Origin: Azolla caroliniana
Lineage: Eukaryota; Plantae; Polypodiophyta
Assembly: GCA_043228905.1 (NCBI GenBank)
Contig: JBHGNT010000004.1
Span: 19,220,001-19,284,000 of the forward strand
Direction of reading: 5' to 3'
DNA length: 64,000 nt
This document shows, piece after piece, positions 7,905-53,300 of the stretch. The position numbers were made by a program, and so were the translations under genes. How positions within the stretch are numbered: position 1 is the stretch's first letter; each line of letters opens with the position of its first letter. The notes below the pieces were generated by a model. The model had not been told where the DNA came from and did no database searches. It was given only the letters and a program-made list of their open reading frames with translations.

Positions 7905-8438
7905 GAGGATCACCGGCGAGATGATACGAGGAAGGAACGGACAAAAGCTCACTCACTCTCTCTCTCTCATACACACACATAACTCACATCTCTTCCGCTT
8001 CACAAGAATCATATCCAATTCTTTACATCAGCCAGAGATATGGCTGACTTGGTTGCTCGTTCATATTCCTTATGGACTTCTACTAGTGCCTCATGTAAAG
8101 GAGGCATCTAGATGGCTTCTCCCCTATTTTTTGCGTTGCGCTGTTGGCTGATTCGGTTGACTTCCTGTTGTGAGGATCACCGGCGAGATGATACGAGGAA
8201 GGAACGGACAAAAGCTCACTCACTCTCTCTCTCTCATACACACACATAACTCACATCTCTTCCGCTTCACAAGAATCATATCCAATTCTTTACATCAGCC
8301 AGAGATATGGCTGACTTGGTTGCTCGTTCATATTCCTTATGGACTTCTACTAGTGCCTCATGTAAAGGAGGCATCTAGATGGCTTCTCCCCTATTTTTTG
8401 CGTTGCGCTGTTGGCTGATTCGGTTGACTTCCTGTTGT
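7905..8438. repeat. 267-bp tandem duplication (7905-8171, 8172-8438)
   Basis: Both copies run gaggatcaccggcgag...ttcctgttgt and appear identical. Confidence 0.92.
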
Positions 8439-9272: not shown

Positions 9273-9448
9273 TAGTAGTTGTTGGCCGTATGGCCTAAGC
9301 AAGGAGTGCGAGCGTATAACCTTCGACGGTTGAATAGTTAGGTTAAATAGTATGGTACCTAAAGAATAATATAAAAGAGAATAGTAGGGGAGGAGAAGAG
9401 AGAGAGAGAGAGAGAGAGAGAATTCAAATTTCAATTTATGTAAGAAAA

Positions 9449-9501
9449 GGTCTTTTGGCAAACATGTTTTGCTCTATATGAGCTCATCAATGCTAAAGAC
9501 C
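9449..9501 (-). ncRNA. Type I hammerhead ribozyme, decayed copy in the 3' pLTR
   Basis: GGTCTTTAGCA-tTGATGA-GCTC ATATA GAGC-aAAA-CATG-TT-TGCCAAAAGACC; stems I and II pair, two core substitutions. Confidence 0.8.
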
Positions 9502-10038
9502 ATATACAAAAATGTGAGAGGCTTATATAAGGGAAGATGAAAGAAGAGAGAAGGGGAGTGGTGGGAATGGATAAGAGGGAGAGAGGGGTTTTGAATGTGT
9601 ATAAATGAGGATGTGGGAGTTAGGGAGGTAGTGAATGTAGAGAGGGATACCCTAATGAGTTTGATGGGAAGGGATGATTTGGGGATCTATTATATTTAGT
9701 TCTAATAGATAGATAACAATACATAATAAGTGTGATGTTTTAATGGGGATTTGGGGATCTAATATATTTAGTTTTGACTAGATAAGAATAGAGTGATTTG
9801 GACTTGGTGCAACATATGAAAGGCTTAGGAATGTCTTTTAGTTGGGGATGTAGGCTATGGTTGGCGTGTAAGTCTTGTAAAAACGAGTGGATGCCTAATT
9901 TAGGGGAGATTTTAGAGTACTTAAGCTTGAATATGGTAGGTGTAAGGGAATATTTGTTTTTATGCTTATGGATGAGAGTATTCCTAAGGAAGAAATGATG
10001 TTTTTTAAAGGCTTTAAGGATGAAATGGGGTGGGTAAC

Positions 10039-10796: not shown

Positions 10797-11199
10797 TACC
10801 CTCAGCTAATGACTCTAAGGAAGAAACATTTTTTCATTTCTAGGTACCCTATAGGTGTGCTTTCTCTAACTAGGTAGCCTTTTAATTCGTTCGAAATAAA
10901 ATTTTGTTTGACATATATGGGATGATCTGAAGAGAAGGGAAGATATTGATAGGAATTTAATGGTTTTTGGAAACAATTGAAGGACAACTTAGAGTTCTCT
11001 AGATTGATCCAAATATCGAAGAAAGGGAGCCTAGTGGGGGACGTATGGATCGTAAGTTTAATAGAGTTATTGGTCATAAGGCTATAGAAACTGAGGTAGT
11101 CTAAGAGTTGGGGTTTCGTACCTGTCCAAACCCCGAATGCATCATCTATGTACACCCCATCTCTTCTTACTTCCAATCACTCAAACCCATGGAAGAGAT

Positions 11200-14100: not shown

Positions 14101-16723
14101 GAGAAGATCGAGAAGACACGATCTTTGGTGCGAATTGGATAAGCCCACACCTTTCGAGTCGAATCGTCAATAAAACTGACGAAGTAAGAGGCACCGCCGA
14201 GAGACTGATGCGGCATTGGGCCACAGACGTCCGAGTGGACTAAATCGAGAGGTCTCGTTTCTCTTGGTGCTGATGTCGGGTGTGATGCGGCTGCTTGTTT
14301 GCCATACTGGCAATGTTCGCAGAATTGATGGTCCGAGAAGGAGAGTTTAGGGATGTATCCGGCTCTAGATAGGTGCGTGATGCCGGCCTTGCTGAGGTGT
14401 CCTAATCTTCTGTGCCATAGTGATGACACAGGAATATCCACCAAAAACAGGTTACCCTCTCTGAGCGTAACATGTAACGGATACAGTGAGTGTATCTTGG
14501 GTCCTCTAGCAAGCAGGAGGTTCCCCCTGTGGAGTGTCCACCCTCCCGAAGAAAAACCGGCACGAATGCCGTCTTCATCTAGTTGTCCGACTGAGATCAA
14601 TGGCCTTGAGAGCTCGGGTACATGTCGGACATTGTGAAGTACAAGTGTAGAGCCACCTGCAAGGTTGAGCTCTACTGTGCCGATTCCAATGATGTCACAG
14701 TGTTGCGAGTTGCCGACTCGAACTGAGTCGGAGTGACGGATCGTATATTGCCGAAATTGGGATCGATGAGGAGTTACGTGAAATGACGCGCCCGAATCTA
14801 AGAGCCATGTGCTCGATTCTTCAGTCGTGAGCAGAACTTCTGATCCGACTGGATTTTCGATTGATAGTATATTCGGGTCGTTTGGTAGTACATCGGCTGA
14901 GAAGCTGACGTAATTGATCTCCTCATGCCGGCCACTCTTCTTGTCTGATTTCTGAGACTTGTCGTTCTTGTTCTTGAGTGCGCGGCAGTCGGCTTTGATA
15001 TGTCTGGGTTTCTTGCAATAGTTGCAGATTCGATTATCCCGTGACTGGCTCCGTCTTCGCTGATTGTTCGGCTGCCGTGAGGAATCTCTTCCTCGTATGT
15101 TCGATCGGTCTGTCGAACCTTGTACTACGTAAGCGTCGTCTGTTGAGTCTTTGGCGAAAGACTTTCTCCGAGCTGCTTCGGTCAGGATTGCGCTCGTGAC
15201 TTCGGAGTATTTAACAGCCGTGGTTGACGCGTTGCACACGGTTGTGACGAAAGTTTCCCATGATGAGGGAAGGCTGCTCATGAGTATCATTGCTCTGAGT
15301 TCATCCTCGATTGCCGTCCCCTGAGATGAGATTTGGGAGCTTATGCTTTCGTACTCATTGAGATGTGCTTGAACCGAATCGGATTCTTTCATCCGCAAGT
15401 TGTAGAGGCACCGGATCAGAAACATCTTTGTTGCAGCGACCTTCTTTTCGTAGGTGTCCGACAGTGTTTTCCACAGTTCGAATGCTGTCGTACACGATTG
15501 CACCGTAAAGTATACCGATTCCGATAGGTGCATCCGAATCGTGGCGCGGACGATTCTGTCCAGCTTCTGCCACTCAATTGGTTTGTATCCTTCTGGAGGT
15601 TCTTCATTTTCGATGGGATCGATTTGCCCCTTAACTATGAGATAGTCCTGCATTTGCTCCTTCCAGAAGTTGAAGTTCGATCCATCGAACTTTCGTAGAC
15701 TCATTTCTGACGAGCCGGATGTGGATGCCATCAAATTTGGTTTCGGTTGACGAAGCTCGGTTCGGAGTCGACTATGAACCTCGTTGGAGTGCAGCCGATT
15801 GGTTCACCCGATATCATTCTAGTCGGATTTGAACCCGAGTCGGTTCGGCTTCGGATATATGTATTGTTGAACTTGCTCGAATTGACTCCGGTAACTTGAG
15901 GGACAGAACCGACTGGTCTTCCCGAATGTTGCCGAGTCGGAGTGAGCCCGGTTCGCTTCCGAATATATATGCCAAATACCGATTATTGAAACCGATTATC
16001 TGAACCGATTCTGCTTCGGGTGACTGCAGCGACGAGAGAGACGGATCCAACTGATCCTCCCGAATGTCGATCAGCCGGATGAAGCACGAATTGGGGTTGT
16101 TGTCTTGAGACCGATCTGCACCGAGTGGTTACAATGAGCGGCGAGCAGCGTTTGATGACCTCTTCGGATGCCGTTTAACCGAGTGGAGCACGATCGTGTC
16201 AGTGTTGCACAAGGGGATTTCACCTCGAGCGGTTACGATCACAGGGAACAGAGTACAGCCGGTTGGCTTACTCCAAGCGAAGATGATCTAACGCGATGAG
16301 ATGCAAGCCTCGTTTTTCTTCTTCTCTCTTCTTCGAATGACGCAGGAAACCGAATGCTGTGCAGGCTGAGACGACGGCCGACAGCGGATTGAAGGACCGA
16401 ATGCTCTGATACCAGATGTTGGGAACAAGGCCGTCAATGTGTAGGATCAAATAGCATTCGATTCTGCTGAATACCTGCGTATGACAGTTTCTGAGGTCGT
16501 GCACAGAGATGGAGAGAAAAAGAGAGAGAGAGAGACAGAGAGGCACAAAAGACTCTTTATTCCATAAGACAATAATACAAAAACCTTACAAAGAGGTTAC
16601 TAGGTCACTTTATATAGTGACCGACTTAGGGCAACTACCCTTTACGCTAATTACACAAATGGCCCAAACTAGAGCTATACAAGGGATAGTGTGAATACGT
16701 CCATTATACACTTGTATTCGACA
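11200..16723 (-). mobile_element. Intact young Ty1/copia element
   Basis: 307-bp LTRs 11200-11506 and 16417-16723 with no difference seen, TSD GAGAT, iMet PBS 16403-16414, PPT 11507-11513. Confidence 0.97.
11700..15734 (-). CDS. Copia Gag-Pol polyprotein (1344 aa)
   Basis: CNYCKKPRHIKADC, LLDSGAS, WHRRLGH..CEHC, HSDVC/RTDNGGEF/AERMN, YVDD, RNase H TDSD/EAEY/YSDSQ. Confidence 0.97.
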   Translation of the reverse strand: MMASTSGSSEMSLRKFDGSNFNFWKEQMQDYLIVKGQIDPIENEEPPEGYKPIEWQKLDRIVRATIRMHLSESVYFTVQSCTTAFELWKTLSDTYEKKVAATKMFLIRCLYNLRMKESDSVQAHLNEYESISSQISSQGTAIEDELRAMILMSSLPSSWETFVTTVCNASTTAVKYSEVTSAILTEAARRKSFAKDSTDDAYVVQGSTDRSNIRGRDSSRQPNNQRRRSQSRDNRICNYCKKPRHIKADCRALKNKNDKSQKSDKKSGRHEEINYVSFSADVLPNDPNILSIENPVGSEVLLTTEESSTWLLDSGASFHVTPHRSQFRQYTIRHSDSVRVGNSQHCDIIGIGTVELNLAGGSTLVLHNVRHVPELSRPLISVGQLDEDGIRAGFSSGGWTLHRGNLLLARGPKIHSLYPLHVTLREGNLFLVDIPVSSLWHRRLGHLSKAGITHLSRAGYIPKLSFSDHQFCEHCQYGKQAAASHPTSAPRETRPLDLVHSDVCGPMPHQSLGGASYFVSFIDDSTRKVWAYPIRTKDRVFSIFSDWLAMVENQTDRKLKCFRTDNGGEFKSEEFVKFCRQRGIRREFTAPHSPEQNGIAERMNRTIQERIVSMLQHSGLSDGFWAEALLTAVHIINMSSSRPLGLQIPQELWIGSKPNYDKLRIFGCEAYALIPKDDRRKLAPRSRKCIFLGYGSDGEMGYRLWDPERRQIVRSSNVVFNESAMNPSVEKPIEVRRVTFSDVPTLQEGPALNTRSASRVAEPYTTDSDNSDSAQPNDSLSDHPTSIPDATSPIIPRRSERLSQPPERYSPGIFFTDAGEPTSYEEASTSVDSATWHLAMESEMHSIRANKTWDLVELPKNRRALPCKWVYRLKETSDSTTPKYKARLVAKGFRQEYGVDFDEIFSPVVKMTTLRFLLGVVAADNLELIQLDVKTTFLHGDLEEEIYMEQPKGFVATGQEHLVCRLRKSLYGLKQAPRQWYKKFDDFIQSIGFSKSDEDHCLFTNTAQDGSPIFLIIYVDDMLISGRHAGELADLIRQLRLKFAMKDLGPARHILGMKISRHRDKRHLFLSQTDYLGRVLERFNMQSAKSASTPLPMNLRLSQRDCPTSGPEGEDMKSVPYAPAVGSLMYLMVATRPDISHAVGVVSRFMHNPGRSHWNAVKHVFKYLAGTKDHGILFGPNSTSGVVGYTDSDFAGCIDSRKSTTGYCFKFGNGAISWKSKLQECTATSTTEAEYVAASDAAKEALWLGRLAHTFRQVDHDSAPVVYSDSQGAVALSRNPVHHNASKHIDVRYHFVRDCVISGKIGLEKISTTDNVADGMTKCLSADRFRSLRHQMGVTTNQSG

Positions 16724-17654
16724 GAGATGGGGTGTGGTTTGTGAGTTTTCTAAGTGTGATAAGAAAAGGCATGCATAGACAACTGAGAAGTTGCAACCCA
16801 TGGTTGTTCCTTTGATTTGTTGGTATACTTGATTATCAAAGGTCAGCTAGTGATACTCTAGGCATGAGTTAGATTATCGGGAAGTAATGCAGGGGCATGG
16901 ATGAGATATGGAAATAATTGAGAGGGAGAGGTGAGGGGAGGACGCATTTGTTCACAGAGGCTGCCTCCATATGAAGGCAAAGGGGGATGTGAGGAGGGAA
17001 CAAAGAAAGGGGAGTAATTAGGGTTCTGAAAACGTGAGAGGTGAGGTTGTTGTGAGCATGGATGAGGGGTTGGAAGGAGGGGCAGCATGAATGTCTATCG
17101 GTTGCCTTGCGTAGTCCCAAACAGCGCGCCATGTAGGGAGGGGGAAGGGTGCACGAGATGGTTGTCCAACACAGTCCCATACTCGTTTACAATAAGGGGG
17201 GGAACGATTGATGAAAGAGGCCGCGATCAACCATGGCATGTTGTTGAGTATTGTGGGGTGGATCATGTTTCTATGATGTCCAATTATCGTAGGGCGTACC
17301 ATGTGTACAGCGAAGAAGGGGCGGTGGCGGCGGCAGCGAGAAGTTTTGTTGGCGGCTTTGATTCGTATTATCCCGTGGTGAGAATTTACCGTAGTATTCT
17401 ATACACATGGATCCCAGGGGCTTCACTGTCAAAACTTGTATGATAGCACATGAGTTCATCAAAAGGGGTTTAAATTAACCATTGAGATTCATAATATATA
17501 TACATAAGGGTATTAATAAATACATAAAAAATATATTTACATAAGGGTGTTATCAATTACGCTATAGAAAAAAATTACATAAGCCCATGAAATATTAGAT
17601 ATTTCAATTAGATAGTAAAGAATATATTATGCAAACAATAGTCAATTTTGGAGT

Positions 17655-21592: not shown

Positions 21593-23429
21593 GTAAATTT
21601 GTCATGTTTAAGTATGTTACTAATACAAGAGGCATAATTGAAACTCTATTTTGGTTTTATTTGTTGTGAATTGGATACATGAATTCCCACAATGTGTTTT
21701 CATTATGTAACAATTAATTTGTCAAGACCAAACCTATCTATGATAAATATTGTTGTTGAGACCAAACCTTTCAGATTAGATGTTCTTGAATCTAAACCTT
21801 TGTGGGTTCCATAGCTTACTCTTTCGTAGAGAGATTAAGGGCTATGGCTATGGAAGAGATGTTTAAAGGTTAAAAGAATTGTGTGTGGTTGCATTGTAGG
21901 AACTTAAGGACTTAAATGCTGAAGTTTTCTTAGAGAAAAACTTGGTATGTGTTTGTTTTGGCATTGTAGCAACTTCATGTAGTGAAGTTCTTTCTCAAGT
22001 TGAATGTTGTGAATTATTCTTGCACATCACATGGTATATTCTTGTTATGATATATCTTTTGTTAGATATATCATTTTTCACTTCCATGAAACCACGATAT
22101 ATGCAATGTTACATAGGCATGTCAAAGAAGATGGCATTGAAGGTGATCCTATTCTTTGAATGAAGGTGGTGTGAAGACGCACATACTCTCCACACTCACA
22201 TACATGAAAATATACATACAAACAAGCAAACATACATTCATACATACACACACAACAAACACATTCATGTATAGTACAATATAGTACATGTATACATACA
22301 CATGCAATACAATACAATACAATACAATACATAAACATGGAATACAACACAATACATACATACATACACATGCAATACAATACAATACATAGACATGGAA
22401 TACAACACAATACATACACACACATAACATATACATACATACATACATACACATGCAATACAATACAATACATAGACATGGAATACAACACAATACATAC
22501 ACACACATAACATATACATACATACATACATACATACAACTATGCATAAAATATGCCCAACTCATTCAAATAATACAATGTAGATTGATATACATCTATA
22601 GGATATACATGCGTTTTTCTATGTAAGGGTATTTAAAATAGTTGTTGTCAAAATATATATTGACAATAAGGGGTATTTTTATTAACCGTTTTTTTACAAA
22701 AGGGTTCTAAAATAGTGAAAAACCATATGTATAAGGGGTTTATAAAAGATATCTTGAACGCACGTGATACAACCTCTTTAAATATAGTGGAGCCCTCGGG
22801 ACGTGGATAAGTGTGAGGGTTAAACGAGAGTGTAAAGAAGGGGAGGATTACTTTTAATCCTCAGGATTGAGACAACCCATTAGGCCAAGTGTGAACTTGC
22901 ATGGGGGCCTTGGGTATCTCTATAAATATGAGGCCTAGCTACCCTCATTTAATGATATCTTGACTACGTCGAGACTCTGTTTCATGGTGGTTCAACTCTT
23001 GTGGCGAGCGCGCCAACACCAAGTACAACTTGACGCCACGACGATGGTATGGGACGCCGATCGAGGCTCGAGTCCGTCTCGATCCCTTCGCTCGGGGGTG
23101 GTCGGGTGGATCGGCACCCTCCTTTCTCTCTCTCATTTCTATCTATCTATCTTTTATCCTTATCATATGCTTACTTTAGATCATAGCTCTAACAGTTGGT
23201 ATCAGAGCTCATGTTTCTAATGTTTCCTTTGTTTGTTTTTGTCTTCTTGATGGATGGTGATTGATCGTCGTGCAGTCGACCTTGATCCAGATAGCGATCA
23301 ACAAAGGAACTTCGGTAACGCTTTCTTGTTTTTCTTTCTATTTTTGCTTCTCCCATCTAATCATGTATACGGTCAATATTTAATTTTTTTCATTGATTTA
23401 ATGATGTTGTGGTAATTAATTGGTTGTAT

Positions 23430-25484: not shown

Positions 25485-28400
25485 TGTTGAGCGGCAAGCT
25501 CAACTGGAGCCGGATCGGCTGGATAAGCCTGAGCCGGTGAGTGAGACGGATCGGTAAGCCGGTGAGCAACCGAACCGGCAAGCAACAGAGCCGGTGAACT
25601 GGGGAGCCGATTAGCCGGATCCAATCGGTAACCAGAAGCCTAGTATTAGTTTAGACTACTAGGCAGTTATAGTCTCATAGTAAGTGTCAGATGCTCGTGT
25701 GAGCATTGAAGTACGCGGTACTTTTGTCAGTCCCACGAGGACTTGTATAAATAGTGCTACTGAGCATAGTTGTAATGAGAGAGAGTGTTTATATTGTTTT
25801 GAATATAGCTTTTACGTTCTGCTCTCTTTGTCTCTCCCATGTACTCTGTGTATTCTCTGCTTTCTCTGTTTTCTAACGCTTCCGCAAGTAATCGTTTTCA
25901 TGGTATTAGAGCACGAGGGTTGAGAACCTCTGCAACCGACAAACGCTTGAAAGCAAACCCTAACAGGACGTAAGAACAACAAATAGAGAAGTGATGGATA
26001 GAGGAAGGGCTAGCTCACTCCCTGTGGAGAAACTCGACAGATCCAACTATGCATCTTGGTCGTACAAGATGCACTAGTACCTGATTGGGCATGGCTACTG
26101 GAGTTTCGTCGAAGGAGCCAACAAAACAGCACCTGATGCGGCACATAAGGATTTCCCAGTGTGGGAACAATCGGCAAGCAGAGTGATGTACTGCTTCGCA
26201 TCCAATGTCGGAGACCAGTTGCTGAGCCACATCCTCGACACCAATGACGTCGACACCGCCCTGTTTGCAAAAGGACAGAAGGTCGAATCAGACATCAACC
26301 TATGGCACAAGTGGATAGGCCACGTCAATTATTGGAGGCTTCAACACCTGCAAACGAAACAAGTTGTTTTCGGTTTGCCGAAGTTCAACGGCCGGAAGGC
26401 CCAAGTATGTGAAGCCTGCCAACTCGGGAAGCAACACCGGCTTCCATTCCCTACCGAACGTAACCGGAGCCGTAAAAGGCTCGACCTTATCCATTCTAAT
26501 GTGTGGGAACCGACAGAGAATGTTAGTCTTGGCGGGAGTTGATATTTCATCTCCTTCATCGACGACTATACGCGACACACATGGATCTACCTCATTGAGC
26601 GGAAGAGTGAAGTCTTCGAGTGTTTCCGGAGTCTCCAAAGCATGGTGGAACGGGAATCGGAGAGGAAGATCAAATGCCTACGGTCGGATGGCAGAAAACA
26701 ATACTTTTCCGGCCAATTCAACAGTTATCTGCAGCAAAAGGGAATTCGGCGAGAGTTTAGCTGCAGATACACAACACAACAAAACGGTGTTGCCGAAAGG
26801 AAGAACCGGTCACTTATTGATGCGGCAAGGGCAATGCTGGAGGAGAAGAGCATGCCCAAATTCTACTGGGCGGAGGCAGTCCGAACGGTTGTCTACATCC
26901 AGAACCGGATCGGTGACAAGGTGTCAGCTCACGAGCTGTATTTCGGGTGCAAGACGAATTTGAGACACCTTAAGATCTTCGGTAGCATTGCATATGTGCA
27001 TGTACCAGATGAGAAGCGGAGGAAGCTGGATGCAAAATCGGAAAAATGCATCCTAGTCGGCTATGCTCAAGAGAAAAAGGGTTATAAGTGTTATAACCCC
27101 CGGACAAAGCAGGTTCGAGTTAGTCGAGATGTCGAGTTTGATAAATCGGCATCGTGGTACTCCTTACCGACTCCGACTTCCGAATCCGACCCGATGCCGG
27201 AGAATGAGGCTAGTGAGCCTGAACCGGTCCAGGTAGATGATGATGAAGCGTGGACTCAGGATGAGAGTCCGGAATCGTTTCGGTTGAGCAGGCCGAACGA
27301 GAGATTGAGTCAATCTGACCAATCCGATGAGGAACCGGCAAAGGGGGACCTAGTTGACCCTCCCCGTCACTGTAAACCGATCGGATGCAAGTGGGTGTAC
27401 AAGATAAAGTACAACGCCGACGGTTCAGTTAACAGGTAGAAGGCCCGATTAGTGGCGAAGGGATATGCGTAGACCCACGGAATCGACTACGACGAGACCT
27501 TCGCTCCGATAGCGAAGATGACGACGGTTCGTGTGGTGCTAGCGGTTGTTGCAGCAAGGGGGTGGCATCTTCACCAGATGGATGTGAAGAATGCGTTTCT
27601 TGAGGGTGATCTTGAAGAAGAAGTCTTTATGACTCAGCCCCCCGGTTTTCAATCGGAGATGAACAAGTCGACGGTATGCCGGTTGAAAAAGTCGTTGTAC
27701 AGCCTGAAGCAAGCCCCTCGAGCTTGGAATGCGAAGATCACGCACCGGTTGCGTAAGATGGGGTTTGCGGCCTCCAAGTCCGTCTCTTCGTTGTTCATCC
27801 GGCAAGGCTCAACCGGTCCGGTATGTATCCTGTTGTATGTTGATGATTTAGCCCCTCGAGCTTGGAATGCGAAGATCACGCACCGGTTGCGTAAGATGGG
27901 GTTTGCGGCCTCCAAGTCCGTCTCTTCGTTGTTCATCCGGCAAGGCTCAACCGGTCCGGTATGTATCCTGTTGTATGTTGATGATTTAGTCATCACCGGA
28001 CCGGGTCTTCCAAAACTTAACCGCGTCAAGTCCCAGTTGTTGGATGCATTTGAGATGAAGGACCTGGGGGACCTTCATTATTTTCTTGGGATCGAGGTGA
28101 TCCGAACCCCCGATGGCATATTGCTCTCACAATGACATTACGTCTTGAATATGTTGTACAAGTTCGGCATGACAAAATGCCGACCTGTCTCCACACCCTT
28201 GGACCGGAACCAGAAGCTTCATCCCAACTCCGGACCGGCCTGCAACGAGAAACGGTTCCGACAAATTGTCGGAAGCCTTATTTACTTGACTATCACGCAA
28301 CCCGACATCAGCTATCCGGTCGGAATGATAAGTCAGTTCATGTAGAAGCCGACCGTGGAGCACCTTCAGTGCGCGCAATAGATACTACGATATGTAAGCG

Positions 28401-32673: not shown

Positions 32674-35071
32674 ACATAAGTCTACAAAACCTATTGTGCG
32701 GAATGCTATACTAGATCTCGCCTTTAAGGAACTCAAGGACCTAGTGTGGAAGGCTCCTTCACTTCTTTTACCTGATCCTTAAAAACCTTTGGAGGTTGAA
32801 CTAATGCAGGCGATTATGCTATAGGTGTTGTCTTATATCGAGATGGTAAACCAATAGCATTCGAGAGTAAGAAACTTGATTCTACTCAATGTCGGTATAC
32901 CGTTCAAGAAAAGGAGTTATTTGCAGTTATACATGTGCTCAAAACATGGCACCATTATCTTTATGGAAATCGTTTTGTGGTAACTACAGACCACGAGTCC
33001 TTGAAATATTTTTGTGACCAACAAGACCTGAAAGGTCGTAAGGCACAATGGGCTAATCTCATCCAGGACTTTGATTTTTCCATACGATATCGTAAAGGCT
33101 CCATGAACATTGTCGTTGATGCACTAAATCGCATCCGTGAAGTTAACATGCTTAGCTTCACTGAAATAACATCAGATCTTTATGATCACCTTCGAGGAAA
33201 GTATCCTGATGACAGTTATTTTGCGAAATACTAGACAAGAGTTGAGTTTGGAACATACACCACCACATCCTCGAAGGAATCCTTCCACATTGCTAACGGT
33301 CTGCTCTACCGTAATGGGAAGGTTTGTGTTCCAGATTTGCCTGAGGTCAAAAAGAGAATTCTTTTTGAATGCCATGATGCACCCTCAGTAGGGCACCCTG
33401 GAAAACATTGTACACTCGTTCTCATCTCCACTCAATTCTATTGGCCTAAGATTTGTCCTGACATACATAGCTATGTGACTAAATGTCACCAATGTCAAGT
33501 TAATAAAGTCGAGTGACTTAAAGCCGCACGACTTTTACATCCCTTGGACATTCCCAATAATAAGTGGGAAAGTATATCCATGGATTTTATTGTTAGCCTT
33601 CCTCGCACCCAAAAAGGCCATGATGCCATCTGGGTTGTGGTTGATAGACTAACTAAAATGGCGAGCTTTATTGCTACTAAAACCACGGTAACAACTCCTG
33701 AATTGGCTTACCAATTCGTTGACAAGTTATTTCATTTTTATGGGTTACCAATGGATATCGTGAGTGATCGAGATCCAAAGTTTACTAGTGACTTCTGGAC
33801 GCAAGTCTTTAAGAAGTTAGAAACTACATTGAGCATGAGCTCCACGGATCATTCTCAACCCGATGGACAGACAAAATGAGTAAATCAAATTATTGAGGAC
33901 ATGCTTTGAGCATACGTTGGTGCAAAACCAACAAAATGGGAACGTTACCTCCCAATTTTGGAGTTTACTTATAATAGCTCCAAGCATACGTCGACAAGAT
34001 ACAGTCCTTTTATGTTGATGTATGGTTTTCATCCAGGAGCCCCAATTGATGTTAATATACATCATCATGAGTTGCGAAGTACGCAAAACTTTCTTCGGGA
34101 TATGCAAGATATGTTGCATATTGCATGAGATAATATAAAAATAGCTCAACATAGAGCACGTTTTTACGCCGATCATAATAGTCAACCTCATGTATTCAAC
34201 CCTGCACATAAGGTATTTTTACGTGTACCTCACAATTCTAAGACATTGTCTACGGGTCCTCAAGGTTTTGTGAACCTTTTCAAGTCCTCAAACGCATTGG
34301 TTCATCAACCTATCGTCTCGCTCTTCCCGATGGCATTGAAATTCATCCAATTTTTCATGTAAGTCGTCTAAAAGAACTTCTAGGTTCTGGCGACAATACA
34401 ATTACAACTGAAACTCTGGTTACTTCTGAAGAATTATCTTCTAAACCACATGTACCAGAAAGAATTCTCGATGTTAAAACAAAAAATCTGCGTACTACAA
34501 TAATACGAGAATTTAAAATTAAATGGATGGATAAATCTATCAAAAATGCCACATGGGAACGCGAAAATACTCTTAGAACTAACTTTCCATTGCAAGAGTG
34601 CAATGTTTTAAAGAGGGGGAGTATGTTACAGGCATGACCATATATTATCCCGTGGTGAGAATTTACCGTAGTATTCTATACAGGTGGATAAGTGTGAGGG
34701 TTATACGAGAGTGTAAGGGGAGGATTACTTTTAATCCTCGAGATTGAGACAACCCATCAGGCCAAGTGTGAACTTGCCTGGGGGCCTTGGGTATCGCTAT
34801 AAATATGAGGCCTAGCTACCCTCATTTCATGAGATCTTGACTACGTCGAGACTCTTTTTCATAGTGGTTCAACTCTTGTAGTGAGCACGCCAACACCAGG
34901 TAAGACTCGACGCCACGGCGGTGGTATGGGACGCTAATCGAGGCTCGAGTCCGTCTCGATCCCTTCGCTCGGGGTTGTTCGGGTGGATCGGCACCCTTCT
35001 TTCTCTCTCTCCTTTCTTTCTATCTATCTTTTATCCTTATCATATGCTTACTTTAGATCATAACTCTAACA

Positions 35072-36466
35072 ATGGAGCTCGGGGACGGTGTTAGGAGCCG
35101 GAGGACTTGTATGAGCGGGGAGATGACCGAGGTCTATCGTTGCAAATGCTTGTGGTGAGCGGTAATGGTGCGGTTCATTATTGGCAAAGTGTGGGTTATG
35201 GAAAAGAACTTGAGGCCCCCCAGGGTTGGGATAAGGTTTAAATGCCTATTTAACCTCATTAGTTGCGGTGTTGCGGGTGAAAAGGAGGTTAGATGCTCGG
35301 TGACGAGGACGTTGCGCTTGTTTGGAGTTATTATTGGAGCGGTGGTTTGAGTTAAGGTGAGAGTTAGGAAAAGGGTTAGTGGTATTTTTGGAATTAAAGT
35401 TAGTGTTTGGGTTAGACTTAGGTTCTGGGTTAGGGTTTAGGGTAAAGTTTAGATTCTTTTTGGGGTTGGGTGTGGGTGTGTGATTAGAATTTTTATTTAG
35501 GTTCATAGTATGGGGGACAAAAAATTTAGTATTATTTATCTCGGCTTCTACGGAACCAATGTACGAGGGACTGCCATAAAACATCTCATTATCATTTTCT
35601 TCTTCCCCTTCATACATTGTAATGTCTATATCTCTAATATTAGGGTTTTCATACCTATTTTGTGCTCTTGTTTTATCTCTAAGTTTTGTGGCTGTTCTCT
35701 TAAGTGTATCATCAATGTTGTGATTTAGTGCGAAATCGTCACACATTTTTAGGATTTCAGAGTCAAAATCTTGTAGTAACGTATTAATCATTTCATGAAA
35801 ATTAGCAGGCTCAACATATGATGACACATTCTCAAAATGTTGGGGTTCTTGAAGGATGTTCGCAAAGTTATGTAGATATGATCTAATGGTATTAGGGAAA
35901 TTATCTAGGGTTTTAGTATAGGAGTGCACTAGTAAGTCTAGATGTTTAATATAAGTACTTGTTAGATCTTTATTATATTGATTAGTTAGGGTTAGAAAGT
36001 CCTTATGCATGCTATTGTTAATTTCTTCATGATCTATCTTTAGCTTGGGGGGATGAATTCTAAGATTATTAGGGGTTCATTCATGAGAGTATAAGTTCAA
36101 CATCGTACTATGGGTATTTGTGGCTTGTTTTTCTCTTTTGAAGAGTTGTTTAAATTCTGCGAATACTCTAGTTTTATATTCTTCTAAGTATTTCGAGCAA
36201 AATGATGTATTAGAAGATGATAACTTAGTATTGGAAACCTTAGTATCAGGAGTGGAGTTGATGAGTGAGGGAGAGAGAATATAATCTCGAGCATGCTTTT
36301 GTGGTCTTTTATTTGCACTATTGCGCTTGATAGGGGTCGGTGTAGCTGATGCCATCGTTTCAGACGTCATTATCGTGGGTTGAGGGAACTCTTCACTAGA
36401 TGGTTGCCCGAACATTGTCGATGCAGATCCATTGTGGGTTCCTATCTCCGGTGAATGAACCTCCAT
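35072..36466 (-). pseudogene. N-terminal part of the PLE ORF
   Basis: ATG just downstream of the pLTR; ORFs 36077-36466 and 35246-36010 lead toward the GLKF motif. No convincing GIY-YIG. Confidence 0.6.
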
Positions 36467-36603
36467 GTGATATGTTGAATCTTTAGTAGTTGTTGGTCGT
36501 ATGGCCTAAGCAAGGAGTGCGAGCGTATAACCTTCAGCGGTTGAATAGTTAGGTTAAATAGTATGGTACCTAAAGAATAGTATAAAAGAGAATAATAGGG
36601 GAG

Positions 36604-36643
<40 letters not shown>

Positions 36644-36665
36644 AATTTCAATTTATGTAAGAAAA

Positions 36666-36718
36666 GGTCTTTTGGCAAACATGTTTCGCTCTATATGAGC
36701 TCATTAGTGCTAAAGACC
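36666..36718 (-). ncRNA. Type I hammerhead ribozyme in the 5' pLTR
   Basis: GGTCTTTAGCA-CTaATGA-GCTC ATATA GAGC-GAAA-CATG-TT-TGCCAAAAGACC; one core substitution. Confidence 0.85.
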
Positions 36719-36778
36719 ATATACAAAAATGTGAGAGGCTTATATAAGGGAAGATGAAAGAAGAGAGAAGGAGAGTGT

Positions 36779-37707
36779 TCTCACGAATGGGTGGAATGAG
36801 GCTAAGTACTAAGAGAGAGTGAGAGCATAAGCAAGATCACAAGATTGTCAAGGACAAGTAGACAAGGCTCAATATTAAGAGATAGCGGGAGAGAGAGCAT
36901 AGACAAGAGAAGAAGCAAGAGAGAGGATAGACAAATAAACAAGAATTGTATATGCTTTTGTAATTGGTGTTGTTCACCTTGACTGTAATCAAGGTGCACC
37001 CCAGTATTTATACAAGAATGTGGAGGTATGCATGAAAGCTAGAAGACTTCTAGAGAGTGCATGGAAACTTCTAGAGAGTGCATGAAGATGCATTCTCTAG
37101 AAGGTTCTCGAAAGTTCTAGTGATCAATCTATAATGAAATAAGTTGAGTCTTACACAATACAATAATGCATAGATGGACGTAGCTCAATTGGTAAGGTTG
37201 CACAATAAGACCAGAAGGTCATGGTAAAGACAGGATGCCACATGGAATGGTGGGGGTTGAAACCATGACCTTCTGGTCTTATTGGGCAACCTTACCAATT
37301 GAGCTACGTCCATATATGCATTATTGTATTGTGTAAGACTCAACTTATTTCATTATAGATTGATCACTAGAACTTTCAAGAACCTTCTAGAGAATGCATC
37401 TTCATGCACTCTCTAGAAGTTTCCATGCACTCTCTAGAAGTCTTCTAGCTTTCATGCATACCTCCAAATTCTTGTATAAATACTCAGGTGCACCTTGATT
37501 ACAGTCAAGGTGAACAACACTAGTTATGAAAGCATATACAATTCTTGTTTATTTGTCTATCCTCTCTCTTGCTTGTTCTCTTATCTATGCTCTCTCTCCC
37601 GCTATCTCTTAATATTGAGCCTCGTCTACTAGTCCTTGACAATCTTGTGATCTTCTTATGCTCTTGCTCTCTCATAGTACTTACCCTCATTCCACCCATT
37701 CGTGACA
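36779..37707. mobile_element. Palindromic element made of two head-to-head chromoviral LTR copies
   Basis: Arms ~36779-37225 and ~37262-37707 are inverted repeats; ends TcTCACG/CGTGACA; TSD agtgt/agtgg; arms resemble LTR 47987-48428. Confidence 0.88.
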
Positions 37708-37825
37708 AGTGGTGGGGATTGATGAGAGGGAGAGAGGGGTTTTGAATGTGTATAAAGGAAGATGTGGGAGTTAGGGAGGTAGGAGAGATACCCTAATGAC
37801 CTTTTCTTACATAAATTGAAATTTG

Positions 37826-37900
<75 letters not shown>

Positions 37901-38016
37901 TCCCCTACTATTCTCTTTTATACTATTCTTTAGGTACCATACTATTTAACCTAATTATTCAACCGTTGAAGGTTATACGCTCGCACTCCTTGCTTAGGCC
38001 ATACGGCCAAAAACTA

Positions 38017-41000
38017 CAAAAGCAATTTCAAGTAGGAATTTGGTGACTTCATGGAAGAACTCATCCTCCTCGCCCTGTGTTTTATATGTGTTGGCCTACG
38101 GAGAGTATTCTCCGAAATATGATCGCAGCATCTCATTATCCATTTTCTAAACTACATCAAAACCCTCTTTTTTCAAGTTCATCAATCGACGTACCTATTT
38201 GTTAGTTATCTTGGCGATGTCGATCCTCTGAATCAATTCTGTGGCACGCGGATGCGGCTCCGAATCCGCCACTTGAAGATATCCCTGAAGTCCTTTGTTG
38301 CCCAGTCACTCTCGAAGGTTATCAAATACAGGGATCGGCATGGTGTCGTTCTCGTCAGAGATGTCTGATGTCTGTAGTGATGGTGATGACGGCTTTTGAT
38401 TGCGAAGACACGGAGAAGAAAATTTCTTAGCTCTAAAAAACTTCTGTGTTTGTGGCGATAGAGAACATGAGTTATTAGGTTTTAAAGAAATTAGGTGTTT
38501 CATGATGTCTAGGGAAAAGGGAATATACTATTAATGATAGTACTAGTCTTCAAATAGTAATAATAACTCCACCACTCGTAATAACTATTGCATGATTTGT
38601 GACCATGTAACTTATAGTCTGAAAAAGACCATGCCAAGAAGTCTTCATGCAAAACAGTTACTTCTGTTATATTTTTGTCAAGATTTTATTATTATTATTA
38701 TTATTACTATTTACATTTGTGGCCTATACCAGGTCACGTTGCGTTGGTTTGTTTTTCAACTTGAAAGGGATTTTCCGGCATCGCGCCCTGAAAAGGTTTG
38801 AGTCGAAAACCGTTAAACCATTTTGGTAAAATTTCCCCTGATAACGTACCATTCTTGCTATCAACAATCCAGAACGGCCACGTCCACCGGAATCGAAGTT
38901 TTCTGGGCATAGACCCCATTTTAGTTTGGAAAACTAAAACTAATTTTCTGATTGTGAATTGCTTTTCTTTTTGTCGTCTATGTCGGTCTACGAATGCCTT
39001 TGTTTGTCATTGTTTTTGCTCTAGTGTTGACATTGCTTGAATTCGACTTTCCTCTAACAACAATAATTGTTGTTTCTGAACTTGTTCCTACTTTACTTTG
39101 TCTAATCTTTCGGTAACTTGTATGCGGAGTGTCGGAACTTGAAATTCTATTGGCATTACTGCCTCTAATCCAAATGCCATCCTAAATGGAGTGGATTTAA
39201 TAGTTGCTTTATATGATGTACAATAGGCCCATAAAGCACTATTTAGCTTCTGGTCCCAATCTGTCCTATTCTCATTCACTATTTTCTTCAGAATCATTTG
39301 CAGTGTTTTATTTGTGGATTCTACTATCCCATTAGCTTGAGGGTAGTATGAAGTACTTTTCTTATGTACTACTGCATAATATGTTGATAATTCATGTATA
39401 ATTTTATTAATGAAATGAGTACCTTGGTCGCTTACTAATTCGATAGGACACCCGAATCGACACCATATATTTTCATATAAGAATTTAGCTATTGACGTTG
39501 CCGCATTATCTCGCAAAGGTTTAGCCCCAACCCATTTTGTGCAGTACTCCGTAGCGACTATGATATATCGATTCCCTGTCCGTACCGTTGCTGGTTTAAA
39601 TGTACCGACAAAATCTAGTCCCCATTTTTGAAACGGTTCTAAGGGCAATACAGGTTGAAAAGGCATTCTATCCTTTTCTATTGGTTGTCCGATTTTTTGG
39701 CATAATTCACATTGTCGACAATATTCGACTACATCTCTTGTTGTTGTCGGCCACCATAACCCACTATTCCATATTTTCTTGGTCGTTGCTTCCCCTGCAT
39801 AATGTCCACCCGCGACACCACTGTGAGTTTCCCGTAGGATTGCTTCTTTCTCGAACTGTCAAACCGTGTGTTGCCAAATTCCATCCGCCCCCTTGTGGTA
39901 TAGAGTGTCGTTTAGGAGACAAAAATTTCGACTTCGAACCACTAGTCGTTTCCTTTCATCTATTGACATATGATCGGGTGGTAACCCTGTTGTGAGGAAA
40001 ATTGTCATTTCGGTTATCCACGCATCAGATGTTTCATCATTCATCTCGTGAACCGGTACTGGGTTGACCCAAAAAAGTTGTCCATCTGGAAAATTGTCTT
40101 GTATTCCTGTTCCTTCTTCTCCCAACTCTAAATGGCTAAGGTAGTCCGCCACAGCATGTTGTACCCCTGGTCGATGAAGGATGTCGAATTCAAACTCTTG
40201 AAGTAGCAACGTTGATCTTGCTAATTTGCCTGTAAGTTCTTGCTTTGAGACTAAATACAGTAAAGCAAAATGATCGACATGAAAGGTGAACTTCCGTCCC
40301 AAAAGGTAATGTCTGAATTTATTAATATTGTACACCATTCCCAAAGCTTCCCGTTCTGTTGTTGAATAATTCCGCTCAACTGTGGAAAGTTTCCGACTAG
40401 CGTAATATACCGGCCTATACCAGTTCAGTTCCGACAGCTGCATTAGGGAGCTCCCAATTGCTACATCTGATGCATCAACAAACACATGAAAAGATTTGTT
40501 CCAATCAGGAGGTTGCACAAATGGAACTTTCGAGAGCATTTTCTTTAGATAGCTATACGCATCTTGTTCAACCGTCGTCTACTGGAAAGGTGTTCTATGT
40601 ACCGTTGTATGCAACAGTATTGCAACATTAGCAAGGTACCTCATCATCTAACTATGCCATCTTATTTGTCCTAAGAACCAACTAAGAGCTTTTGCATTTG
40701 TTGGTGTTGGTGCCTCCATTATTGCTTTAACTTTATCTGGGTCTACTACTATGCCTTCTTGACTCACAATATGCCCCAATAAGGCGCCAGTTGTCACTCC
40801 GAATGCACATTTAGCCGGATTTAGGCTAAGCCGACCTTGTCGACAACGTTCTAGGCACAATCTTAAATGTTCAAAGTGTTTTGTTTTCCGATTGTAAACA
40901 ACAAAATCATCTAGAAAGATTTGCATGAACGCAGGAATATAATTATTAAAAATTTCTTGTATTACCCTTTGAAATGTGGTAGGAGCCATTTTTAACCCAA

Positions 41001-48428: not shown

Positions 48429-49719
48429 GGGAGGGAGAGGAGTCTGAAACTAGATTGAGTTGTGGATGGGGTATTAGAGAAGTTAGGTCCATTCATTGGA
48501 AAGGATGTGACCCGATTTTTGCAGGTGTTCGATGCAAAGATGTTACATCGCAATATTCCTGCTAATTTGAAGAAATCCAACTTCCATCGTGGTAGCTGTC
48601 GATGTTCTTCCTATCATAGAAGAGCTTCAGACGCAAGATGTTGAATGGGAGGTATTCTGTCGTGATCTACTCGGTGTTTTCAATTGTGCTGATTCCACCA
48701 AGATGACCTTGCGGGCATTTGAAGCTTGGGTGAAGTTGGACAAGAAGCATGGGTCAGTTCTAGAGACCCTTTTTTATTTTGAAGCAAAGTTCCGACAACT
48801 CTCAGTTCGGGAGCAAACTTTGCTTGAACCAGAGAAGGTGGTTCTCTTCCTTCGCTTGGTTCCCTATGCGGATAGGGTAGAGCTAGGGAAACTTATGGAA
48901 TCAGGTGAAACTAAAACAGGTTTACAAGAGGATTGGTGCCGAATTCGGTCCATCTGCCTTCGATATGAGAAAAGATGAACATGGTTGGGCTCGAAGGGAC
49001 GTGGAAATGTTACTCTAACCTCCTCTTTGAAGACAAGAACAAGGATCGAGGCATATATGGAGAAACCACAACCAGGTGACGTAGATGAGTTGGTGAAGCA
49101 ATTCATGGAGTAGAAGATTTCTTCCATGTCGAAGGTGCAACTCAGCCACAAGTGCAACGAACTCTTCCGACTAGGGATTTTCGATGCTTATGGTGTGACA
49201 GTTTGGAGCATCGAAGATCGGAGTGTGTGGAGCATCAGGAGGCTATGCAAAAGAACCTCATATTCTACAAGGATCAGTTGATCCACTCATATGTGAATCG
49301 TCAACCACTAAACACAAATTTTGGGCGAGGAGGAATGAAAAAGGTCTTGGAGGAAGAAGAGCTTCGACATGCATAAGCTATTTTCCATTCTACTTCGGCT
49401 GCTATTCGACTAATTAAAATGTCAAAGCAAGATCCAACTATTCAAACTGTTCGTATTGAAGATGGTTGTCAAAGGACTGGTTGGAGTGATCCAACTTTTC
49501 CCACAAATTATGATGTGATGGTAGAGGAGAAGAGGAGGAGAGAGGAAGAGTTGGATCATGAACGAGTTCTAAAGAGGGCTGATTTTCTTTCTCCATCTGA
49601 ATAGCAAAATTTGGACATACAAAGGGCTGAACCAAAACCTGTACATGTATCCAAGAAGTTGTTGGGATTTCGGTCCCTCCGGATGGGATGTCCGGAGATG
49701 AATGACGGCAAGCCCGGTT

Positions 49720-49855
49720 GCGGTTACGGAGCCGGATGATGAAGACCCCGGTTACGGAGCCAGATGATGAATACCCCGGCTACGGAGCCGGATGATGAAG
49801 ACCCCGGTTACGGAGCCGGATGATGAAGACCCCGGTTACGGAGCCGGATGACGAA
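49720..49855 (+). repeat. 29-bp tandem repeat (~4.5 copies) in LTR U3; same array at ~54492-54627
   Basis: Unit cggttacggagccggatgatgaagacccc. Confidence 0.9.
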
Positions 49856-50347
49856 TGTACCCGGAGAGAGATCCGGATGCGGGGACATATTTGTGAATAT
49901 GTTTGCCAAGGGCCCTTGAGGCTATATTTGTAAATAGCCCGAAAGTCATCTGTGTATAAATATGACTTAGGGCAAACAGTTTTAGGTGGTCGCTCATTTT
50001 TCTGATTTCACCTAGAGAGAGCGAAGAGAGCAGCCGCGAGAGAGAGAGAGAGACGAAGAGGTCGTTGCCTCTGTGTATTGCCGCCGCCTGTGGCGAAGAC
50101 AGTGAGCTCAAGGTTGTTGCCTTGAAGCTTCACCATTGTACATCCCTGTTCATAGTGATAGTTGGAGTTTGAGGACTCCCGTGGTTTTTCCCATTTAGGG
50201 TTTTCCACGTAAAATATCCTGTGTACTCCTCTCTCTATAGTCTTCGTGTACTTTGTATTTCCCATTTTCGGAGAGTTGATCCTATTCCTCGGTTGTGGCC
50301 GAGCACCGTTTGCAACAAACTGGTATCAGAGCGAGTTGTTGCAGAAA

Positions 50348-53300
50348 ATGGAAGGCGGCGGCAGCGGGCAGCCGGGGATGATGGTGCTGAATGCGCAGAA
50401 TTACGCCGACTGGAAGATCAAGATGGAGGATCTTCTGATTGTTCGGGACCTGTACGAACCGATTGACAGGTCGGAAATACCGAAAGGGGTACTTGAGTCG
50501 GAGTGGAAGCTCCTGAACCGGAAAGCCGTAGCGACGATCCGACAATATGTCGATGTAAGCGTCCTACAACATGTGGCGAACGACACCAACGCATATGAGA
50601 TGTGGAAGAAGCTGTCGGGCCTCTACGAGAGGAAGAATGCGTTGAACCGGACCTCCCTGATGAGGAAGATAGTGAACCTCAAGTATCGAGACGGCGAGAG
50701 TATGGTGGAACACGTAAGCACGTTCATGGGATTCGTGAACCAGCTTGCGGCGATCAAGTTCCCGTTGGAGGATGCAATGCAAGCCATCATCCTGATGTGT
50801 ACATTGCCGGACAGCTGGGAGAACTTGGTGGTGACTCTCAGCACCTCCTGCACCGAAGATAACTTGTCCTTACAAACGGTAAAGACAAGTATTTTGAACG
50901 AAGAAGCGCGTCGGAGAGATAAAGAACCGGCCTCCGACCCGAAGGCGCTGCTTACCGAATCGGATCGGGGAAGACAATGGAACCGGAGTCCGCAAAGACG
51001 GGAGAAGTCGGGGACCCGGTCGCAGTCAAGAGGAAGGCCCACATGCTTCCACTGTGGGAAGCCGGGGCACTTCCGAAAGAATTGTCGGCATTACCGAAAA
51101 GACAACGGAGCCGACGACACCGATTCGAAGAAGTCACCGGAGAGAAACGGTGCATACCGGGGAGCCACGGACCGGAGAGGTTCGGATCGGCGAGGGCAGG
51201 ACCGGAAAGGAACAACGGCACTCGCGGCAAGTGAGGAAGAAATCATGCTCATCACCGAAGAAGGTGAACTAAACGTTGCCGGCGATGAGACGACCTGGGT
51301 GGTCAATTCCGGAGCATCGTTCCACCTGACCCCGGAGAGAAGATACTTCTCATCCTACACAGCCGGTGAGCATGGCTGTGTTCGGATGGGAAATGAAGGT
51401 ACGTGCCGGATTGCCGGCATAGGAGACGTGTGGTTGACAACCCCGACCGGATGCAAAATGCTGCTGAAGGATGTCCGACACGTTCCGGAGGTTCGATTGA
51501 ACCTGATTTCGGCCGGGAGGCTAGACGATGAAGGTTATGCAGGTAGCATCCGGAACGGCGTAATGAAGTTCAGCAAGGGGAGCCTGATAGTGGCTCGGGC
51601 CCGGAAAGACAACACACTGTACCTAATGAATGCCCGGTTATGTCCGGAAGAGCTGAATGTGGCAGCCGACACTGCCGGTGAGCTGTGGCACAAAAGACTG
51701 TGCCACATGAGTGAGAAGGGGATGAAGAGGCTTGCAGAAGACAACCTTATCCCAGTGAAGCATGTGCACCTGGAGAAGTGCACCGATTGCCTGGCCGGTA
51801 AGCAGAACCGAACCTCCTTCCACTCAAGGCCACCGACGAGACGTAGCGCACCATTGGAGTTGGTGCACACTGATGTGTGTCAGGTAGAAACGAAGTCACA
51901 TGGCGGAGCCCAGTACTTCGTAACATTCATCGATGATCATAGCCGAAAACTGTGGACGGCACCGATGAAGACAAAGGACCAAGTGTTGTGCGTCTTCAAA
52001 GAACTCCACGCGAGAGTGGAAAGGGAATCCGGCAAGAAGCTGAAAGCGATACGAGCGGACAACGGAGGGGAATACCGGGGGCAGTTCCAGGAGTACTGTC
52101 GCTCGAAGGGAATCCGACTCGAGTTTACTGTGCCGAAGACGCCGGAACTGAACGGGCTGGCCGAGAGGATGAACCGGACCATAATGGAGAGGGTCCGGAG
52201 TATGCTGGCGCATGCAAAATTACCCAAGGGGTTTTGGGCTGAGGCAATGTCGACGGCGACATACGTGATAAACAGATCACCCTCAGTACCTTTGGACGGA
52301 GACACGCCGCAGAGAGTGTGGACCGGTAAGGAAGTATCCTACCGGCATCTGAAGGTGTTCGGGTGTCTCGCATATGTGCATGTGGCAAAGGACCGGAGAG
52401 GAAAGCTAGATCCAAAGACCCGGCCATGCATATTCCTCGGTTACGGCGACGATGAGTTCGGCTACCGAGTATGGGACCCGGTCGACAAGAAGATATTCAG
52501 GAGTCGAGACATCATCTTCATGGAGGACAAGACACTCGCCGACTGGGAGTCGGAGAAGAAGATGAAGAGCTCCAAGTCGACCGGTGAGGATCAACTCTAC
52601 AAGGAGCAGTCCCGACCGGCAAGGGACCGGTTAGCACTCGAGGATCCGGCCGAAGACGGTGAAGATACAGTACCGGCCGAAGAAGATGAAAATGATACCG
52701 GAACCGGCCCCGATCCCGAAATGAATTCGGATGAAGAAGAATCGGAAGAACCGGTTACCGAAGCTCCGGAACGGAGATATCCTCTAAGAGAGAGAAGGGC
52801 CCCCCGGAGATTTCCGGAACCAGAGCATGTGCTGCTAACCGACGAGGGGGAGCCGGAGAGCTTTGAAGAAGCAAAGCACGACACCCAAAGCCGCAGGTGG
52901 TTGAGTGCCATGCAGGACGAGATGGATTCCCTGCATGAGAACCACACATATGAACTAGTGGAGTTGCCAAAAGGAAAGCGGGCACTTCGAAACAAGTGGG
53001 TGTTCAAGCTGAAACCGGGAGATGCCGGAAACCCCCCGAGATACAAAGCCAGGATCGTGGTGAAGGGGTTTCAGCAGAAGAAGGGCGTCGACTTCGACGA
53101 GATATTTGCCCCGGTAGTGAAGATGACCTCCATCCGGACGGTGCTGAGCATAGCGGCAAGCATGAACCTCGAGGTAGAACAGATGGACGTGAAGACGGCA
53201 TTCCTTCACGGTGACCTCGAAGAAGAGATCTACATGCAGCAACCGGAAGGATTCGAGAAGAAAGGGAAGGAGCACCTGGTATGCCGGTTGAAGAAGAGCC

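Follow-up and report, generated by a model that had tools for sequence, protein, structure and literature searches.

Within the 64,000-nt window of Azolla caroliniana DNA that we analysed lies one copy of a Penelope-like element (PLE), split by nested insertions and oriented on the minus strand. Each of its two pseudo-LTRs (pLTRs) holds a decayed hammerhead ribozyme, and both ribozymes are relics of this single insertion. Positions are numbered from the predicted cleavage site, with +1 as the first base after the cut (U1.1), negative numbers upstream and no zero. The 3' part of the upstream pLTR (36480..36777, minus strand) contains a TATA box (36740..36746) 22 nt upstream of the ribozyme (36666..36718), a CT microsatellite, the 3' signal and a 3' end at about +188. 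The 5' part of this pLTR (37708..37799, minus strand) begins at about -190 and is separated from the 3' part by a later insertion that does not belong to the PLE (36778..37708), consisting of an LTR (about 37228-37707) and its inverted partial duplicate. Next to it, and sharing 2 nt of microhomology with it where the two join, is an inverted, 5'-truncated copy on the plus strand (37798..38022) whose first base is at +9 relative to the cut.

The coding region is broken into several pieces, all on the minus strand. The 5' part of ORF1 (35072..36479) is interrupted by a stop codon and continues, past nested LTR elements, at 16861..17367, after which a deletion of about 1.5 kb has removed the frameshift site and the N-terminus of the reverse transcriptase (RT) from this copy. 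Fragments of the RT gene (ORF2) follow at 16723..16862 and, with the YIDD motif, at 10797..11153. The last piece (9273..10038) comprises the end of ORF2, the 3' UTR and the downstream pLTR (9273-9658), with its own TATA box (9523..9529) and ribozyme (9449..9501), and reaches the 3' end of the element. A conserved 3' motif is present at 36505..36521 and 9294-9310 on the minus strand and at 37982-37998 on the plus strand. We considered whether the two window copies derive from unrelated insertions, which is unlikely given that the fragments are colinear with one element and that 288 nt of pLTR sequence hold just 10 differences between the two, all of them transitions (3.5%). This anatomy supports the placement of the ribozymes in PLE pLTRs that had been made in a preliminary description of the sequence.

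Several of the nested insertions have unusual features of their own. The 930-bp palindrome at 36778-37708 was considered as a MITE or as a part of the PLE, and both assignments were rejected; it is an LTR with a local inverted duplicate. It belongs to a high-copy LTR family (1354 candidates), its arms are 4% diverged, and the LTR is palindromic only in the window among the 40 candidates scored of the 1354. The LTRs of an element nested in the PLE (34684-35071 and 22803-23194) are 7% diverged, compared with 3.5% for the host pLTRs, the reverse of the expected age order. Two copia elements (11200-16723 and 49659-55089) appear very young, with LTRs 100% and 99.8% identical and long open frames, and the first of them is nested inside the RT gene of the PLE. 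Exact tandem duplications of 267 bp (7905-8438) and 140 bp (27712-27989) occur in LTR elements and are either recent events or assembly artefacts.

Both hammerheads are encoded on the minus strand, which the preliminary description had left unstated, from 36718 to 36666 and from 9501 to 9449, with predicted cuts at 36678/36677 and 9461/9460. The order of parts is the same in the two copies: stem I, the core box, stem II (GCUC/GAGC), the GAAA box, the palindrome ACAUGU (36684-36679 and 9467-9462), GUU, and the returning strand of stem I. Stem II, the palindrome, the GUU cut and the bulged stem I are all found as the preliminary description claimed, as is its statement that the copies carry different transitions. 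The upstream copy has G5>A (36705) in its CUGAUGA box, and the downstream copy has C3>U (9490) together with G12>A (9470) in its GAAA box. Compared with 200 shuffles, the two window copies gave fold z scores of -3.1 and -3.3. Among hammerhead positions, G5, C3 and G12 are essential for activity, and U17, as in GUU, makes a weaker cleavage triplet. Because each has core mutations, both window ribozymes are probably inactive. A comparison with Rfam models, proposed earlier as a check, did find Hammerhead_HH9 at both sites, but at 21.3 and 19.2 bits, far under the gathering score of 52. Intact copies of the family scored only 22-24 bits against the same model, in three of seven loci, with the clan and the place being right.

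The ribozyme, although mutated in the window, is conserved in the family and is of a known kind. A genome search for family A (the family of the window copy; B to J are sister families found in the same genome) returned at least 41 matches; of 65 candidates, 40 were scored, and 30 of the 41 matches were aligned. The whole core is intact in 19 of the 30 aligned copies. Of the 13 core changes in family A, 12 affect CG or CHG sites, as C>T or G>A, and so appear to fit methylation-driven decay after insertion. A strict core pattern had 271 matches genome-wide and none for the reversed control. By its core (CUGANGA, GAAA and NUH) and its three helices in type I order, the motif is a type I hammerhead.

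The pairing of the stems is kept where the sequence changes. Among 12 family representatives, the distal part of stem I is GGUC/GACC in six, GACC/GGUC in four and GGCC/GGUU in one, with no clean partner in the last, and stem II is GCUC/GAGC in eight and GCCC/GGGC in four. The stem III hexamer is palindromic in all 12, as ACAUGU in family A and ACUAGU elsewhere, and the length of loop II varies between families from 5 to 9 nt. Counted as covariation, distal stem I shows two double changes and stem II shows one, and the palindrome exists in two forms. These swaps probably represent few evolutionary events, each possibly single, yet pairing was kept every time. Together, the aligned copies and the representatives bear out the CUGAUGA/GAAA core and stem pairing that the preliminary description had attributed to the family.

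The same description had called the ribozyme minimal, and this label does not fit. As presented in the available text of PMC4209133, the metazoan min-HHR lacks helix III; its helix I is short, its helix II measures 7-8 bp, and stem II is preceded by an extra base. None of these features was found here: the family A ribozyme has a 4-bp helix II, a helix I of about 10 bp, no extra base and a 6-nt palindrome. The two do share the conserved core, the G10.1-C11.1 pair, a palindromic 15.2-16.2 region and the logic of a dimer. The canonical form described in the same source, with a 4-bp helix II, a long bulged helix I and a helix III of 1-2 bp with a palindromic loop, matches family A, and Selaginella PLEs are reported there to have such a canonical type I ribozyme, in which helix III is short and palindromic. 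Hammerheads in PLE pLTRs, including those of plant PLEs lacking an endonuclease, were thus already known (PMC4209133).

In folding calculations, the lowest-energy fold of the monomer mispairs the core and lies 1.6 kcal/mol below the open hammerhead fold. A strand-swapped dimer with a 6-bp stem III was calculated at -34.4 kcal/mol, compared with -32.4 kcal/mol for two monomers; a non-catalytic co-fold was lower still, at -37.4 kcal/mol. We infer from these models that the hammerhead may act as a dimer.

The host element is best seen in an intact family A copy, L062, which has an ORF1 of about 770 amino acids overlapped by an RT ORF (ORF2) of 661 amino acids. The copy is full length (4.9 kb), its first base is at +2, and a 112-bp duplication flanks it. 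About 230 nt separate the end of ORF2 from the ribozyme. An A-AAA-AAC heptamer in the -1 register, with a downstream stem (-20 to -31 kcal/mol), is present in all seven elements checked, and a -1 frameshift from ORF1 to the RT is predicted. The slippery site lies between the two ORFs at L062:3686-3720 and has a counterpart in six sister elements. The GIY-YIG endonuclease was absent from ORF1 and ORF2 in all six proteins scanned for it. The RT has the DK-motif and YIDD and a match to RVT_1 below the curated cut-off, and a PDB sequence search with it gave no matches. In a FastTree phylogeny of 45 of 96 protein matches plus family representatives, the RT groups (SH-like support 100) with endonuclease-less Cryptomeria proteins and a "Gb_" protein at 40-42% identity. 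Its relatives also include GIY-YIG-bearing RTs, at about 30% identity, and these fall apart from this group. Between families, the RT proteins are 65-77% identical.

All families have a conserved TATA box some 65-75 nt ahead of the cut, 32-39 nt before the GCA of stem I in every family examined, and it is likely to be the promoter. Family A copies have a fixed 3' end, at about +178..+188, which in some cases is extended by a short tail into ORF1 (24 copies). The 3' motif, about 35 nt before the end of the element and common to most sister families, is likely to be a recognition signal for the RT. Regular target-site duplications were absent in most of the 24 copies checked, and two copies had long ones of 62 and 112 bp. 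We considered telomere targeting for family A and found no support for it, as the copies are dispersed and there is no telomeric tract: of 53 copies, 44 are over 1 Mb away from any contig end and none is within 100 kb of one (three of 56 matches, on small contigs, were left out, and contig ends need not be telomeres), and near the ribozyme or the 3' end of family A only scattered single CCCTAA hexamers were found. With its pLTRs, partial tandems and inverted 5'-truncated copy, the family shows the hallmarks of PLEs. Judged by sequence, the host is a two-ORF, endonuclease-less PLE that is dispersed and not telomeric.

Sister family B (L061:600-3479; L075/L076) has a CCCTAAA-like tract downstream of the ribozyme and forms 5.6-kb tandem arrays, and some of its copies are near a contig end (C7:6047); it may be a telomere-linked relative. 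The ribozymes of family I recur every 1.2-2.2 kb or so at G000:C20:6681703-6688216, C20:13309023-13316336 and C9:13005201-13008765. This period is shorter than the 4.7-kb autonomous unit, and the repeats are possibly non-autonomous, retrozyme-like derivatives.

About 50 family A 5' ends were curated by hand. Seven of them fall at -2..+9, compared with 11 in 438 flanking positions (+10..+150 and -3..-300), a density at which 0.28 would be expected at -2..+9 (P 2e-8), although this uniform null overstates the significance because 5' ends are non-uniform elsewhere, with minor hotspots of three ends at about -190 and two at -308. The seven ends are at +2 (L062), +9 (three, including the window copy at 37798), +6, -1 (a tandem restart) and -2..+3 (an inversion); without the window copy, which was pre-selected, the cluster consists of six. 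The preliminary description had singled out the start of the inverted copy at 37798, just downstream of the cut. Its position at +9 and the 2-nt overlap are confirmed, but a single junction is weak evidence by itself.

For sister families E, C, J, I, H1 and H2 we obtained 63, 28, 32, 89, 38 and 52 matches (302 in total), viewed from about 45 nt upstream of the cut to +13, with ends scored in -45..+13 only. In these families, too, the ends were curated by hand: duplicates (one 8-unit array and three pairs) were collapsed first, and ten further loci were dropped, nine as internal deletions or rearrangements and one as a chance match, three of them after a check of the flanks. Among the 36 independent junctions that remained, 16 are at -2..+2, nine at +3..+13, four at -29..-3 and seven at -45..-30. 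The binomial probability of the peak at -2..+2 (four positions) is 5e-10, and none of 100000 uniform simulations placed 16 ends in any 4-nt window; two family E ends at -2 share four flanking bases and may be one event. At C16:4601349, a family E copy meets a family J copy head-to-head, each with its first base at +2 (the J copy is a variant that the J search did not cover and is uncounted), and another locus joins J at +1 to I at +13. Several of the cut ends adjoin the 3' end of another PLE or an inverted PLE piece.

Could cut-start copies be intact copies that were split later? For insertions of up to about 10 kb we rejected this explanation. No displaced upstream half was found within that distance of the cut-class loci among 30 fetched, except at one dropped deletion, and the flanks mostly lack LTR-like ends. 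This check was by BLAST, with the junctions read directly at three loci that had no BLAST row.

The 5' ends of retrocopies often mark transcription starts, and the cluster could be a start site that coincides with the cut by chance. Promoters in pLTRs are indeed known (PMC3846280, in the part available). However, the only conserved TATA box, from its distance to the cut, predicts a start near -44 to -37 and not at +1, and the peak follows the cut even in families whose downstream sequence differs, and we consider such a coincidence highly improbable. Another possibility is that no cleavage occurs and the RT stalls on the folded, uncut ribozyme, so that the ends record a structural pause. Twelve ends do lie at or near +7..+13, where the RT first meets stem I (the three family A ends at +9 among them), and a number of ends extend 1-6 nt beyond the cut. 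Against this, the sharpest peak is at -2..+2 and not at the 3' edge of the stem, there are no ends at -10..-14, before the GC-rich stem II, and the density of ends drops from 1.67 to 0.15 per nt across the cut. We regard stalling as improbable, if less so than a chance start site. Cleavage, for its part, has to account for the one or two U from upstream of the cut that seven of the 16 peak ends carry (four begin at -2, and J and H1 supply three that begin at -1), as does an eighth end, also at -1, in family I; these extra bases need microhomology or untemplated addition.

We propose that so many copies begin at the predicted cut probably because the RNA is cleaved there in vivo, and that this conserved type I hammerhead, in the pLTR of a two-ORF, endonuclease-less PLE, likely cuts the RNA after GUU, where the RT likely runs off. 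We put the probability of this reading at roughly three in four. The preliminary description had suggested that the ribozyme processes the RNA of the element, and the genome-wide clustering supports it.

Cleavage is probably partial, since most copies include the intact downstream ribozyme: the junction is intact and read through in the large majority of the sister matches (302 in all) as well as in most copies of family A. The cutting of a minority of the RNAs could even be a side reaction or a brake, with productive retrotransposition using uncut RNA and cut RNA giving mostly short, dead stubs. This agrees with the many intact junctions and with most cut-start family A copies being stubs of about 190 nt, as well as with the available text on the Anolis PLE, according to which cleavage is dispensable in vitro (PMC11167929). 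L062, on the other hand, is full length and yet starts at the cut, and the strong conservation and covariation of the ribozyme across families with RTs as diverged as these imply selection for its activity. We find it rather unlikely that cleavage is only such a side reaction, although the idea is partly compatible with our own explanation.

In the proposal of Cervera and de la Pena, monomers running from cut to cut would be ligated into circles and copied by a rolling-circle mechanism, which could give partial tandems of the kind seen in the window. Some upstream pLTRs begin at -126 to -190, ahead of the TATA box, and therefore cannot come from linear RNA begun at that TATA, and tandem arrays are present in sister families. 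Partial tandems are equally well explained by read-through from arrays or by RT jumps, however, and a circle, having no end at the cut, cannot explain the 5'-end peak. Circles thus seem an unlikely main route, only slightly less so than stalling.

Under the cleavage reading that we prefer, the cycle may run as follows. Transcription would start at about the 5' edge of the ribozyme, from the TATA box. Two ribozymes would pair through the 6-nt palindrome to form an active stem III, and a fraction of the RNA would be cut after GUU, probably in such palindrome-paired dimers. The RT, made by the predicted -1 frameshift from ORF1, would start about 185 nt downstream of the cut at the conserved 3' signal. 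Because an endonuclease and regular duplications are both missing, it would be primed at DNA breaks, a route that has been suggested for endonuclease-deficient PLEs in the portion of PMC3846280 available. It would then copy to the cut end, or stop at +9..+13 where the cut-off leader is still paired, and the cDNA would join the target by microhomology or jump to another PLE RNA. Long copies could come from RNA cut at the first ribozyme only, from jumps between cut RNAs, or from circles.

The closest known systems share parts of this arrangement; we compare with them as described in the available portions of the papers cited. The endonuclease-deficient PLEs of Selaginella moellendorffii (Cervera and de la Pena 2014, PMC4209133) are likewise plant elements with a type I hammerhead in the flanking repeats. 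As described, their ribozyme is alike in its 4-bp helix II, long helix I and short palindromic helix III pointing to dimers. They are described as telomeric, whereas family A is dispersed, and that account reports no clustering of 5' ends for them. Coprina and the Athena/Terminon elements (PMC8557442, PMC12477314, PMC3846280) share with family A an RT without GIY-YIG, an ORF1 frameshift, a hammerhead near the 3' end and partial tandems, but have a telomeric-repeat tract by the ribozyme or 3' end that family A lacks. In Terminons the ribozyme adjoins the C-rich 3' end, whereas in family A the cut is 188 nt inside the 3' end and marks the 5' ends of copies. The Chlamys-derived PLEs of Chara and spike mosses (Craig et al. 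2021, PMC8557442) likewise lack an endonuclease and have a canonical hammerhead, and those of Chara have spread genome-wide by an insertion route left unexplained there. They carry CxC and N-terminal CxCx1-8C motifs, and inspection of the 661-aa ORF2 by eye showed neither. Poseidon PAc of Anolis carolinensis (PMC11167929) also has a pLTR hammerhead and copy 3' ends fixed at an internal site between pLTR and ORF, with occasional short tails as in family A. It has an endonuclease, however, and no ends at the cut: Frangieh et al. (2024) describe cleavage as not needed in vitro, with no reads ending there, whereas the genomic 5' ends of family A peak at the cut.

What appears to be new here is the sharp pile-up of genomic copy 5' ends at a predicted PLE hammerhead cut. 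We found no report of such clustering in the literature searched, including the available text of bioRxiv 10.64898/2026.07.22.740005 and PMC12477314. The function of PLE hammerheads has been called unclear (Craig et al., PMC8557442), and the peak, seen in seven families, is indirect evidence of cleavage on the RNA that is used as template. Family A is also an endonuclease-less PLE that has spread through chromosome interiors, a kind of spread that the literature, in the parts available, treats as an open problem. We can go further and suggest a vascular-plant clade of endonuclease-less PLEs spreading genome-wide without telomeric repeats, in which the pLTR is a cassette of promoter, ribozyme and initiation site: the TATA box would start the RNA at the edge of the ribozyme, the dimeric hammerhead would remove the capped leader, and the RT would finish at the cut 5' end and jump to the target or to a PLE RNA. 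The odds of this wider reading seem to us about even. If it is true, the genome is a base-resolution fossil record of PLE hammerhead cleavage in vivo and answers what PLE hammerheads do. Young, intact natural copies, such as L004, have been identified.

Some smaller features of the copy ends deserve mention. The three starts at about -190 (window 37799, G000:C13:3139195 and C17:18757170) all continue into ORF1, and a second start site or a shared source is possible. The 8-unit array, L167 (G000:C5:3884901-3892416), consists of units of about 1058 bp, each with a family J piece that starts 5 nt after the cut. At five loci (G000:C19:8870997, C19:8834415, C3:751236, C10:10046935 and C13:1081665), one to four bases are missing right at the cut; these losses may stem from imprecise RT jumping, from scars left by ligation or from errors in homopolymers.
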